In this document: positions 1,519 to 5,823 of the stretch, one piece after another | Layout of the letters: the number at the start of each line of letters is the position of its first letter | Numbering within the stretch: the first letter of the stretch is position 1 | IMG/VR virus record: IMGVR_UViG_2713896784_000012 | Span: 1-5,823 of that record | DNA length: 5,823 bases | Reading direction: 5' to 3' (one strand) | Origin: a virus | Taxonomy: Duplodnaviria; Heunggongvirae; Uroviricota; Caudoviricetes | The notes under the pieces: model-generated | Told to the model about the DNA's origin: nothing | The model's database searches: none | The model's input: the letters and a program-made list of their open reading frames with translations, nothing else | Position numbers and translations under genes: made by a program

Positions 1519-1568
1519 NNNNNNNNNNNNNNNNNNNNNNNNNNNNNNNNNNNNNNNNNNNNNNNNNN
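1519..1568. other. Run of 50 N (assembly gap or masked sequence)
   Basis: Directly visible as n characters; gene content across and next to it cannot be trusted. Confidence 0.99.
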
Positions 1569-2963: not shown

Positions 2964-3183
2964 TGTTAACCTCCTGCAACGCTACACGATACGCCTTCTT
3001 TATCCACGCCTTACTGCCATATAATTTCGTCTTCATAATAAACACACCTGCACGACTCGCCGATATCCCCGGACAGGTTAACAGCACAGCATCCACCACA
3101 CGGTTATGCTTCCGAAACTCCATTACAGTACTGCTGATAACCACCTGCCCCACCGGGCCGTAATCCTGATACAGGATTTTCAC
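2956..3183 (-). CDS. Small basic hypothetical protein (75 aa)
   Basis: GTG start at 3183 overlapping the TGA stop of the upstream HTH gene (GTGA). AGGAGG lies 8 nt upstream, inside the end of the upstream gene. Net basic composition. Family not recognised. Confidence 0.5.
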   Translation of the reverse strand: MKILYQDYGPVGQVVISSTVMEFRKHNRVVDAVLLTCPGISASRAGVFIMKTKLYGSKAWIKKAYRVALQEVNSE

Positions 3184-3461
3184 GCAGACACCCTCCTGTC
3201 GAAATAAACGTAGTTATTCACTATGCGCAGCGGCATGCCTAATTTTCTGGCAATTTCCCTTCTTTGCATGCCTCTCTGATGCAGTTGCCGCGCCAGCTCA
3301 ATATCACGCTGAGAATATTTTGCCGACGGGTGAAAATCACCACGTAACATCATGCTGATGCCCAGCTCCCGTGCCTTCGTTCTCACTGCCGCTTCAGTTC
3401 GTCCGATAAGTGCGCCAACGCTTTTTACCTTCATCGTTCCCGCACACTGCCGGAGTATCAT
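3180..3461 (-). CDS. Small helix-turn-helix DNA-binding protein (about 93 aa from ATG 3461; alternative start ATG 3434)
   Basis: HTH-like segments SVGALIGRTEAAVRTKARELGI and QRREIARKLGMPLRIVNNYV. The track ORF extends to 3584, but that would overlap the upstream gene by about 90 nt; an internal ATG just downstream of the upstream stop (3494-3496) is more plausible. Confidence 0.55.
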   Translation of the reverse strand: MILRQCAGTMKVKSVGALIGRTEAAVRTKARELGISMMLRGDFHPSAKYSQRDIELARQLHQRGMQRREIARKLGMPLRIVNNYVYFDRRVSA

Positions 3462-4243: not shown

Positions 4244-4906
4244 TCAAATAAAACCAGCTGCCTTCCGGCGTTCGTATTCCTGTTTCAGCCGTTCAATTGG
4301 CGTTGGCCCTTGCGGGTGTTTCGCCCCTTCCAGTTGTCGTCGCACTGGCGGAACACTCATCCCGTTACCAACATGCTTTGCCCATTTCGTCAGTTGCCGT
4401 TCCGCAAGTCGTTTTAACTCACCTTGCGTCATCTGGCGCTCAATCCCTCTGGTACGCATTTCGAGGCAGATGTGGTACAGCACAGGCTGTGGCCACGGGT
4501 ATTTATCACTCCCGTCGTATCGCCAGGATTCATTGCGCCAGCGCCGGTACTCTTCCATCACGGCATCCACCGTAAGACCAAATGGATTTGCCCCACTCTC
4601 CGAAATCAGCGCAACAAACTCAGCCAGGTCCGGGGGCCACGTTTCACCCGCCCGGCAGCGGTCCATGCACTGACGGCACACCAGACGGATTTGCTGTTCA
4701 GTCATCGCACCAATCTGGGCAATCCAGAGCTTCGAAGGTGCGGCCCCGTTCTTCTGAGTCCAGCGGTTCGAATACACCTCCCCCATGAGCTCCCACAGCT
4801 TCCAGGCCGTTTCCGTTGCTGATAAATCCGTTGTCACGTTCCCACTGTTCGCGTGCAGCCCGGATTTCCTGAACTGCCCGTGATGCCGTGCCACCTGATG
4901 CTGCAT
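4244..4906 (-). CDS. Replication protein P-like (lambda P family helicase loader)
   Basis: Recalled lambda P motifs align: FVAWC region to FVALISES; VDMVYEYCRKRG…YPWKS…MR to VDAVMEEYRRWRN…YPWPQP…EMR; LTDAELRRKAADEL to MTQGELKRLAERQL. SD AGGGGGGA precedes ATG 4906. Sits immediately downstream of the initiator homologue, as in lambda O-P. Confidence 0.8.
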   Translation of the reverse strand: MQHQVARHHGQFRKSGLHANSGNVTTDLSATETAWKLWELMGEVYSNRWTQKNGAAPSKLWIAQIGAMTEQQIRLVCRQCMDRCRAGETWPPDLAEFVALISESGANPFGLTVDAVMEEYRRWRNESWRYDGSDKYPWPQPVLYHICLEMRTRGIERQMTQGELKRLAERQLTKWAKHVGNGMSVPPVRRQLEGAKHPQGPTPIERLKQEYERRKAAGFI

Positions 4907-5432
4907 GGCTTCCCCCCTTGCTGACTGGTTTTACCTGTGCCCTGACGTGCTGCACGTGGCGGGCAAATTTCTGCTCCCACTGAACCTGCGTGAAAACCTT
5001 CCCCTCCGCCATCCAGTAATCCCGGAATGCGGCAAGCTCAGCAGGTGTAAATTCCGGCTCAGGCAGAGCCATACCCCACACTGCTGCCCGTTGTCGAAAA
5101 TCCGGCGACGGCTGCCAGACAGTAGTCATCGAAAATTTCCCGATCGGTTCGCTCAGGCCGTCCAGGTATTCAGGTTCGGCTGTCTGCAACGGCGCACCAT
5201 TCGACTCACTGGTCGGAATACTCTCGCGCGCGTTATGTGTGGGGTTTAATTCTGTATCTGTATCTTTATCTGTATCTTTATCTGTCGTGACTTGTCGTGA
5301 CTTGTCGTGACAGATGCGTGACACGTCGTGACTCATCGTGACAATCAGCATTATGTTTCCGCAGCTTTTCCCGCTCCCGCTGCGCTCTCTTGCGCTCTGC
5401 CGGGGATTTTGCCGTTTGCGAAACGTTACCAT
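4698..5432 (-). CDS. Replication initiator, C-terminal part: open frame containing a DnaT-like domain; frame-broken relative to the N-terminal domain ORF and overlapping the P-like gene
   Basis: …IGKFSMTTVWQPSPDFRQRAAVWGMALPEPEFTPAELAAFRDYWMAEGKVFTQVQWEQKFARHVQ… closely matches the recalled C-terminal region of E. coli DnaT ([63 protein letters not shown]). The true start and true end are uncertain. Confidence 0.6.
   Translation of the reverse strand: MVTFRKRQNPRQSARERSGSGKSCGNIMLIVTMSHDVSRICHDKSRQVTTDKDTDKDTDTELNPTHNARESIPTSESNGAPLQTAEPEYLDGLSEPIGKFSMTTVWQPSPDFRQRAAVWGMALPEPEFTPAELAAFRDYWMAEGKVFTQVQWEQKFARHVQHVRAQVKPVSKGGSHAASGGTASRAVQEIRAAREQWERDNGFISNGNGLEAVGAHGGGVFEPLDSEERGRTFEALDCPDWCDD
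5251..5286. repeat. Tandem hexamer tract (TCTKTA x6), AT-rich, next to iteron array A
   Basis: tctgta tctgta tcttta tctgta tcttta tctgtc; encodes the DKDTDKDTD tract in the C-terminal initiator frame. Confidence 0.7.
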
Positions 5433-5751
5433 TGTCCTCTTTCAGCACCTGACGTTTTTCCCATCCGGAAATAAGGTCACCATCCAGAACCCGCCCCTGC
5501 ATTGCATGCAAAATTGAATCAATTACGTCTTCCGTCACATCAAGCGCACTTGCTAAATCTTCCGTCGTGACATCAATGTGACCACGTAGTGACACGCCGT
5601 GACATGTCGTGACATTTCGTGACGCGCTCACCAGAAGATGGATATACACTGCCATCACTGTTGCGATTGGCTGTCCTGATACCCTGGCAATCGTTCGCCA
5701 CTTGGGGTCATTTGGCATGTCATGCCACAATCTGAGCCAGGCATTAGCCAT
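5278..5751 (-). CDS. Replication initiator, N-terminal replisome-organizer (lambda O-like N-terminal) domain ORF
   Basis: MANAWLRLWHDMPNDPKWRTIARVSGQPIATVMAVYIHLL…GWEKRQVLKE… fits the recalled phage replisome-organizer N-terminal pattern. ATG 5751 with SD AGGTGA 3 nt upstream (the track start at 5757 is a GTG). Stop TAA at 5278-5280 lies at the edge of iteron array A. Confidence 0.7.
   Translation of the reverse strand: MANAWLRLWHDMPNDPKWRTIARVSGQPIATVMAVYIHLLVSASRNVTTCHGVSLRGHIDVTTEDLASALDVTEDVIDSILHAMQGRVLDGDLISGWEKRQVLKEDNGNVSQTAKSPAERKRAQREREKLRKHNADCHDESRRVTHLSRQVTTSHDR
5284..5342. repeat. Iteron-like direct repeat array A: six GTCGTGAC-type cores at 10-11 bp spacing (candidate origin iterons)
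   Basis: Cores at 5284, 5294, 5304, 5315 (tgcgtgac), 5325 and 5335 (atcgtgac); GTGAC is invariant and all copies share one orientation. Confidence 0.7.
5564..5623. repeat. Iteron-like direct repeat array B: six GTGAC-core repeats at 10-11 bp spacing
   Basis: Cores at 5564 (gtcgtgac), 5575 (aatgtgac), 5586 (gtagtgac), 5596 (gccgtgac), 5606 (gtcgtgac) and 5616 (ttcgtgac), same orientation as array A. An inverted GTCAC copy lies at 5534-5538. Confidence 0.65.
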
Positions 5752-5775
5752 ACTCACCTCTTCTGATACCGAACT

Positions 5776-5823
5776 TTACCCTCGAACATCCGGAAGAAAT
5801 CCGGCATGAATATTGTTGGTCAA
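5776..5823 (-). CDS. Possible 3' end of an upstream minus-strand gene entering from the right edge (…LTNNIHAGFLPDVRG, stop at 5776-5778)
   Basis: Only 15 codons are visible; the frame is open to the window edge. No identification possible. Confidence 0.2.
   Translation of the reverse strand: MTNNIHAGFLPDVRG

Follow-up and report, generated by a model that had tools for sequence, protein, structure and literature searches.

The initiator locus of prophage Sp11

The window analyzed here, the whole 5,823-nucleotide stretch, carries the early-right replication module of Sp11, a defective lambdoid prophage of E. coli O157:H7. Its sequence comes from a draft assembly and is interrupted by an N gap (positions 1519-1568), and the O157:H7 strain ECP19-598 matches it at 100% identity on both sides of that gap. 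Compared with Sakai Sp11 over 5,773 aligned bp, the window shows 0 mismatches and a single 10-nt gap, which corresponds to one extra copy of GTCACGACAA in the window. The Sakai record labels the region "prophage Sp11, lambda-like phage" and lists the initiator as an intact 1044-nt CDS (ECs_2206) and the loader as ECs_2205. An identity with Sakai Sp12 (CP-933P), suggested by the neighboring nleG7, was ruled out because the Sakai record puts the gene in Sp11; the Sp12 initiator, ECs_2276, is of a different type and has no GTCAC units.

The gene order on the minus strand is initiator (4698-5751), lambda-P-like loader (4244-4705), a DUF1627 protein and an HTH protein. As read from the sequence, the ATG of the loader gene overlaps the stop codon of the initiator gene (ATGACTGA at 4705-4698). 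Rfam gave no match anywhere in the window, and a promoter and terminator scan returned nothing above shuffle expectation. The features of the locus are the following.

4244-4705, minus strand: lambda-P-like helicase-loader gene (Pfam Phage_lambda_P, 57.9 bits; RefSeq "replication protein P", WP_000139447.1)
4698-5751, minus strand: initiator gene, a frameshifted pseudogene of 1054 nt, orthologue of Sakai ECs_2206
5278-5751, minus strand: ORF1, truncated N-terminal product of 157 aa, with the RefSeq ATG start at 5751
4698-5432, minus strand: ORF2, 244 aa, containing MSHDVSRICHDKSRQVTTDKDTD and SHDVSRICHDKSRQVTTDKDTD and a Pfam DnaT domain
5283-5342, minus strand: array A, six GTCACG units spaced 10, 10, 11, 10 and 10 bp (five units in intact alleles)
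5292-5311, minus strand: two tandem identical copies of GTCACGACAA, identified in alignments with TR01, 272, RM10466 and IBS28
5562-5623, minus strand: array B, six GTCAC units within the coding sequence of the N-terminal domain, spaced 10, 10, 10, 11 and 11 bp
5240-5285, minus strand: AT-rich, purine-skewed tract with 12-bp GATAAAGATACA repeats, adjoining array A; candidate DNA-unwinding element

Two overlapping frames within one gene

RefSeq treats the identical sequence of ECP19-598 as one pseudogene, labeled [quoted passage not shown]. ORF1, which extends to 159 aa (5278-5757, minus strand) if read from an upstream GTG, comprises a winged-helix domain, a basic helix and an array-encoded tail. 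It ends in LSRQVTTSHDR at a TAA (5280-5278) created inside the GATAAA tract, the N-terminal frame after the duplication running ACA AGT CAC GAC AGA TAA. In ORF2, the ATG is preceded by AGAGGA at a distance of 3 nt. Comparison with intact alleles showed that only the part of ORF2 downstream of array A (about 4698-5300) is the native C-terminal frame, encoding the linker and the DnaT-like domain, and that the first ~45 codons (5432 to ~5300) are the N-terminal gene read out of frame.

The initial annotation had described two ORFs that overlap across 5278-5432 and are one nucleotide out of phase, and the coordinates agree with this (5757-5432 = 325 = 3 x 108 + 1). It had also reported that both frames spell SRQVTT from the same repeat units. 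The hexapeptide is indeed present in both frames, but it is not encoded by the same nucleotides: ORF1 uses units 4 and 5 while ORF2 uses units 5 and 6. The neighboring segments that encode SRQVTT are the identical copies of GTCACGACAA, that is, the duplicated pair.

A 10-bp duplication in array A

The six GTCACG units of array A begin at minus-strand positions 5342, 5332, 5322, 5311, 5301 and 5291, and Tandem Repeats Finder reported 5283-5342 as 5.9 copies of a period of 10. GTCACG occurs 15 times in the window as compared to 3.2 +/- 1.8 expected, a count reached in 0 of 200 shuffles. The break between the frames falls inside this array of 10/11-bp period, as had been proposed.

All intact alleles examined have five units in array A and one continuous ORF of 343-351 aa. 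Their CDS lengths (1032, 1038, 1044 and 1056 nt) differ only in the 12-bp linker repeats, and the alleles compare as follows.

RM10466: CDS of 1032 nt, five units in array A, one GATAAAGATACA, intact
IBS28: CDS of 1038 nt, five units in array A, one GATAAAGATACA, intact
Sakai and TR01: CDS of 1044 nt, five units in array A, two GATAAAGATACA, intact
Strain 272: CDS of 1056 nt, five units in array A, three GATAAAGATACA, intact
This window: 1054 nt, six units in array A, two GATAAAGATACA, frameshifted
SCU-104: 1048 nt, six units in array A, one GATAAAGATACA, frameshifted

Repeat copy number is thus six in the window and five in every intact allele examined. The intact TR01 allele differs from the window gene by 0 mismatches and one 10-nt gap, and deletion of one GTCACGACAA from the window restores a single ORF. 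These results bear out the earlier proposal that gain or loss of one repeat unit converts one frame into the other. The extra unit is one of the two identical GTCACGACAA copies, and the newer copy is indistinguishable from the older.

A 19-bp direct repeat, GTCACGACAAGTCACGACA, is made up of units 4 and 5 of array A, and it was very probably here that slipped-strand mispairing added one 10-bp unit. As the added ten bases are 3n+1, the N-terminal frame is diverted to the stop inside the GATAAA tract: reading shifts by +1 and translation ends four codons later at the TAA within GATAAA. The predicted product is a 157-aa DNA-binding fragment that lacks the putative loader-recruiting domain.

Frequency and recurrence of the six-unit allele

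The window itself is a draft assembly, and its allele was confirmed through identical sequences of other assemblies. The six-unit sequence is present at 100% identity in three finished O157:H7 chromosomes (ECP19-598, 17B6-2 and G5295), and the exact 157-aa truncated protein is recorded from eight further NCBI contigs. An 80-nt probe over the six-unit array matched at full length and 100% identity in 4 of 371 array-bearing E. coli genomes. The remaining array-bearing genomes aligned only with gaps or mismatches, and they therefore do not have this exact six-unit array. A four-unit version of array A was found in none of the 371 E. coli genomes with the array.

In the fourth genome, that of the commensal SCU-104 (finished), the unit is likewise duplicated, but on another haplotype. 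This haplotype is separated from the window gene by 26 substitutions and two indel runs, and its distinguishing markers lie 10-13 nt upstream of array A and immediately downstream of it. A third background was found in three samples, where GTCACGACAA occurs twice and is followed by QVTTSHDR and a stop. Its N-terminal domain is of the 606R7 type, its array B has four units and its immunity region is of the ParE2/PaaA2 type. Because the second and third backgrounds share the downstream flank, recombination inside the array could have passed the duplication between them. Even so, at least two independent duplication events are needed.

Other short relatives (144-165 aa), many of which derive from automated Logan assemblies, are mostly due to 1-nt indels upstream of the array or at its edge and end in SRQIKIQIK. 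A Pseudomonas aeruginosa pair of 160 and 135 aa was considered as a natural two-gene version and rejected, since it comes from a C-run that is 1 nt shorter than in phage 5399 through a deletion.

Domains of the initiator and its homologues

Residues 100-166 of ORF2 match the Pfam DnaT domain PF17948 at 63.2 bits (cut-off 25). The NCBIfam model for DnaT, PRK02854, was matched over profile positions 82-156 of 179 at 94.5 bits, which is below its cut-off of 201; this is therefore a domain match only, and the C-terminal half is not a DnaT orthologue.

The N-terminal domain of the window protein and of 45 homologues matched no Pfam family at threshold, including the lambda O N-terminal family and Phage_rep_org_N, and sub-threshold matches to Crp-type HTH families were obtained for 13 of the 45. 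A PDB sequence search with the family profile returned nothing. An AlphaFold model built from the 45 homologues is confident over approximately residues 10-100 and predicts a winged helix, in which array B codes for a loop of low confidence; then come a long basic helix and a disordered tail. The predicted winged-helix fold has structural neighbors of the DnaD-NTD and RepA_N types. PHROGs labels the full protein a replication initiation protein, with a further weak match to "replisome organizer" (phrog_4880, E = 5.8e-6), and relatives are named "phage replisome organizer" in RefSeq.

All 37 homologues from other species, which include E. albertii, Shigella, Rahnella, Serratia, Bordetella, Pseudomonas, Aquitalea and Acidovorax, are continuous through the array, and so are the homologues in phages Evi, Tritos, 606R7, Aeromonas pAEv1818 and Pseudomonas 5399. 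The N-terminal half of the gene has ~85% DNA identity to phages Evi and Tritos, and the C-terminal half together with P has ~88% DNA identity to ydaU-ydaV of Rac-SA53. No record in the phage collection holds the exact gene and the halves match separately; the gene is therefore a mosaic, with its junction at the array and linker.

Among 5,426 complete E. coli genomes, DNA encoding the N-terminal domain was detected in 2,186 (about 40%). The domain was found in 26 of 50,697 phage records, and among the matches listed there was no classical model phage. The plasmid collection gave 11 matching records. To judge from the record sizes, most of these appear to be large prophage-bearing plasmids or chromosome-sized records filed as plasmids, and they are thus uninformative on autonomous replication.

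Arrays A and B are conserved as DNA

Array B has four units in phage relatives, a 21-bp in-frame difference from the window. The distance from the last array B unit to the first array A unit is 229 bp and is constant in all E. coli-group alleles examined. Codon usage was compared in 22 homologues from hosts of 42-68% GC. Third-position entropy in array B was 0.31 bits as compared to 1.41 bits at conserved residues elsewhere, which draw on all synonymous codons. The frozen codons are Val47 (GTC, 22 of 22), Thr48 (ACG, 22 of 22), Gly50 (GGT, 22 of 22), His51 (CAC, 21 of 21) and Val54 (GTC, 22 of 22), and the spacer codon Arg49 varies freely. In subfamilies where the unit is GTAAC or CGAAC, the same unit occurs in arrays A and B. 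These codon data indicate that the repeats are under selection as DNA, apart from the protein they encode. Together with the covariation of the two arrays, they strengthen the name "iterons", which can reasonably be given to the repeats.

The tract that adjoins array A encodes the linker DKDTDKDTD. Its GC content of 30% at 5240-5279 is the lowest in the profiled stretch (4600-5823), with a strong strand skew, and Tandem Repeats Finder reported 5251-5285 as 2.9 copies of a period of 12. The copy number of GATAAAGATACA in intact alleles is 1, 2 or 3. Most of 38 homologues have (GATAAA)n directly after array A, and mean GC in the 40 nt after the array is 0.31 versus 0.53 for the gene, a difference that also holds where host GC is 60-68%. 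Different lineages read the tract in different frames, giving DKDKD, QIREE or LDKRR.

The frozen synonymous positions and the conservation of the arrays and of the tract point to a lambda-like origin inside the gene, and the initiator gene very probably contains the phage origin. The 10/11-bp phasing would place one GTCAC(G) site on each helical turn, so that all of them face the same side of the DNA. In an intact initiator, the N-terminal winged-helix domain would bind the GTCAC sites of both clusters, the purine-skewed AT tract beside array A would melt, and the DnaT-like C-terminal domain would recruit the lambda-P-like loader and thereby DnaB.

Conservation of the pair of in-gene GTCAC arrays and of the (GATAAA)n tract extends from E. 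coli to Bordetella and Pseudomonas. This combination may represent a widespread, undescribed type of origin in Gamma- and Betaproteobacteria. Our literature searches turned up no publication that deals with GTCAC-type iterons or with initiators of this family, although such an absence is not proof.

Comparison with known initiators and origins

In several respects the locus resembles lambda and the Stx phages. As in their O genes, the putative origin is embedded in the coding sequence of the initiator, at the linker between its domains; as at ori-lambda, an AT-rich, strand-asymmetric tract comes after the direct repeats; and the next gene encodes a lambda-P-type loader, as in the O-P-DnaB pathway of lambda. 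On the other hand, no sequence similarity to lambda O was detected and the N-terminal domain has no Pfam match. Lambda iterons are about 19 bp long, whereas the units here are short, with a GTCAC core and a 10/11-bp period. The locus further differs from lambda in having two clusters, one of them within the coding sequence of the DNA-binding domain, and a DnaT-like C-terminal domain. In both systems the number of repeats varies in frame-preserving steps, which here are 21 bp (array B) and 12 bp (linker). Lambda has four iterons and Stx phages have six, the change being in frame and adding 13 residues (PMC7466680).

The Sp11 initiator has the predicted winged-helix fold in common with replisome organizers and DnaD-like initiators such as G38P of SPP1, whose gene contains the origin. 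Unlike these, it has no match to Phage_rep_org_N, its host range is in the Proteobacteria and its partner is a lambda-P-type loader. It is also similar to YdaU of Rac and other "primosomal protein I"-like proteins in having a DnaT domain and a KDTD linker; Rac-SA53 YdaU differs by an unrelated N-terminal domain and the absence of GTCAC arrays.

The duplication recalls phase-variable loci and slipped-strand pseudogenes, where the frame changes on gain of a unit whose length is not divisible by three and the same change recurs independently. In contrast to phase-variable loci, slippage here has just two identical units as its substrate, few genomes are in the off state and no population-level switching is apparent. 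Moreover, the repeats here would serve a DNA function, as putative origin sites, and not switching.

Origin of the split

Three explanations had been offered in the initial annotation: an inactivating change of repeat number in a cryptic prophage, repeat expansion or collapse in the assembly, and two separately translated polypeptides. It is highly improbable that the extra unit was introduced during draft assembly or polishing and that the true gene is intact. The draft status of the window, with its N gap, is compatible with such an error, and the hundreds of "partial" versions in draft E. coli assemblies indicate that contigs often break in this gene. However, the array spans only 60 bp, at a distance of 3.7 kb from the gap, and whole-unit gain of 10 bp is atypical as a short- or long-read error. 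The same six-unit sequence also occurs in SCU-104 and in NCBI and Logan contigs of other samples, in addition to the three O157:H7 chromosomes. The identity of the allele in finished genomes and further contigs makes an artefact very unlikely, and this part of the earlier proposal was not sustained. We also find it very doubtful that the locus is a genuine two-gene design in which DNA-binding and DnaT-like domains are made separately and assemble at the origin. The AGAGGA before the ORF2 ATG is compatible with such a design, as is the modularity of the N-terminal domain, which is fused to at least three different C-terminal domains, and the PHROGs family phrog_21423, of 157 positions, matches the truncated product end to end. 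Yet approximately 366 of the 371 array-bearing E. coli genomes (~99%) are without the six-unit form, and every intact allele examined is one ORF, which is equally true of the 37 homologues in other species and of each phage homologue examined. In addition, ORF2 begins with ~45 codons that belong to the N-terminal gene in another frame, a single recent mutation with zero accompanying substitutions separates the window from an intact allele, and RefSeq handles the locus as a pseudogene. The two-polypeptide proposal is thus not supported.

A further possibility, to which we assign a slim chance, is that the array is a contingency locus acting as an adaptive, reversible switch: the 157-aa fragment would be kept for dominant-negative exclusion, in that it would stop incoming or co-resident phages with GTCAC-type origins from replicating, and loss of a unit would reactivate the gene. 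Recurrence of the duplication on at least two haplotypes fits this idea, and the fragment keeps the whole predicted DNA-binding domain. Its targets would be plentiful, given the 2,186 of 5,426 E. coli genomes with N-domain coding DNA and the 3 such places per O157 genome, and fragments of the lambda replication region are known to exclude rep-lambda phages (PMC3349717). Against it, the repeat consists of just two identical units and not of a long tract, few genomes show the off state (about 4 of 371) and the four-unit state was not seen, and the O157 allele has no other change that would suggest selective maintenance. There is likewise a small chance that the initiator gene is a recurrent mutational hot spot and that its 157-aa fragment acts as a dominant negative at GTCAC-type origins, hindering superinfecting or co-resident phages, in which case unit loss could restore the gene; the proposal of a widespread origin type is likelier than this dominant-negative reading. 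We give practically no credence to programmed +1 ribosomal frameshifting or transcriptional slippage that would restore a full-length initiator. The last codon before the TAA stop is a rare AGA (GAC AGA TAA), and such a context can slow decoding. However, there is no slippery motif between the duplication and the stop, tRNA-Asp on GAC and tRNA-Arg on AGA cannot re-pair at +1 (ACA and GAU), and RNA polymerase would find no homopolymer run for transcriptional slippage. The homologues are single-frame, none having a conserved two-frame arrangement at the array.

We consider it very likely that a slipped-strand duplication caused the split and inactivated the initiator gene, in a prophage that had already lost the ability to excise. 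The explanation listed first in the initial annotation is therefore the correct one: intact alleles have five units, and the prophage is cryptic. In Sakai Sp11, the integrase (ECs_2217) and exonuclease (ECs_2216) are pseudogenes. Asadulghani et al. (2009) found the integrase and repressor of Sp11 disrupted and detected no excision, amplification or packaging, while the O and P genes, with a lambda-type loader, were judged apparently functional (PMC2669165). The prophage was thus cryptic before the duplication. The event is an ordinary pseudogene with an unusually clear cause.

Consequences of the duplication

The split itself is of modest interest. For annotation and genome hygiene, it means that the two ORFs are to be read as one pseudogene, and as a single clean event it is usable as a lineage marker within O157:H7. 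It also shows the cost of encoding an origin within a gene, where only frame-preserving repeat changes (21 bp, 12 bp) are tolerated and a one-unit slip kills. In-gene origin repeats at which a single-unit slip is lethal to the gene would therefore be predictable hot spots of prophage decay. The by-product of this analysis may outweigh the finding, since the candidate origin type is common to prophages in ~40% of E. coli genomes and is also found in phages of Pseudomonas, Aeromonas, Bordetella and others, with no experimental description found.

Ribosomes on the six-unit allele would stop about 575 nt before the start of P. Given this early stop and the overlap of the P start with the native initiator stop, translation of P is probably uncoupled. 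ORF1 and the C-terminal fragments might keep some activity. Exactly 10 bp were added, and the origin DNA thus keeps its helical phasing; the six-unit origin DNA might still work with an initiator supplied in trans. Two further sites in O157 genomes show a match to the N-domain coding DNA.

Mosaic structure of the initiator

The following features of the window are considered here:

4698-4705, minus strand: overlap between the P-like loader gene, at its start codon, and the stop codon of the initiator gene, ATGACTGA
5240-5285, minus strand: 12-bp repeat GATAAAGATACA, which codes for a DKDT linker
5562-5623, minus strand: array B, a second GTCAC array of six units, within the coding sequence of the initiator's N-terminal domain

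Comparison with four other loci (L004-L007) revealed that the initiator is a mosaic, with its junction at the array and linker (window about 5250-5300). There, a single N-terminal domain, putatively origin-binding, is fused with C-terminal domains of at least three unrelated kinds: a DnaT-like one in the window, and others in Evi/Tritos and in Pseudomonas phages. The converse case is provided by YdaU of Rac-SA53, in which the DnaT-like half is attached to an unrelated N-terminal domain.

The linker itself is variable. Intact initiator alleles carry one, two or three copies of GATAAAGATACA and the frame is kept in all of them. A (GATAAA)n tract lies 3' of array A, the GTCACG repeats, in most homologues, including those from high-GC hosts, and its reading frame differs between lineages.

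Array B has six units in the window as compared to four in the phage relatives, an in-frame difference of 21 bp. Its synonymous codon positions are frozen among 22 homologues from very different hosts.

Of 5,426 complete E. coli genomes, 2,186 contain DNA coding for the N-terminal domain, with three such places in O157 genomes. Among 50,697 phage records, the domain was found in only 26.

Split and partial initiators

A protein search returned very numerous 'partial' initiator proteins from draft E. coli assemblies, grouped into clusters with between 300 and 1,100 members each. Evidently contigs break within the initiator gene in these assemblies, likely because its C-terminal half, together with P, recurs in co-resident prophages; this segment occupies 4 places per O157 genome.

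The homologous initiator of P. aeruginosa is divided into parts of 160 and 135 aa through loss of a single nucleotide from a C-run, taking as reference the 299-aa gene of phage 5399 (L051). The split is identical in two prophages whose immunity regions differ (L056 and L057), and the 160-aa fragment belongs to a cluster of 18 member sequences.

The PHROGs family phrog_21423 ('unknown function', 157 positions) matches the truncated 157-aa product of the Sp11 initiator over its whole length, and this family therefore appears to have been built from frameshifted copies of that initiator.

Overlap with the loader gene and other features

The overlap of the loader start with the initiator stop (ATGACTGA) suggests that the two genes are translationally coupled, in which case the initiator frameshift would disrupt coupling to the P-like loader.

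Gene loss in Sp11 differs by strain, with different genes gone in different strains: strain 272 (L002) has an intact initiator, but the annotation of this prophage marks the adjoining Cro/CI-family gene (locus 3082-3325) as frameshifted.

The 50-N gap of the window (1519-1568) has no relation to the initiator frameshift. It corresponds to 145 bp in the finished genome of ECP19-598 (L008 16775-16919), a stretch located, in locus coordinates, just downstream of a gene annotated as Hok/Gef family (L008 16652-16807), whose end it overlaps.
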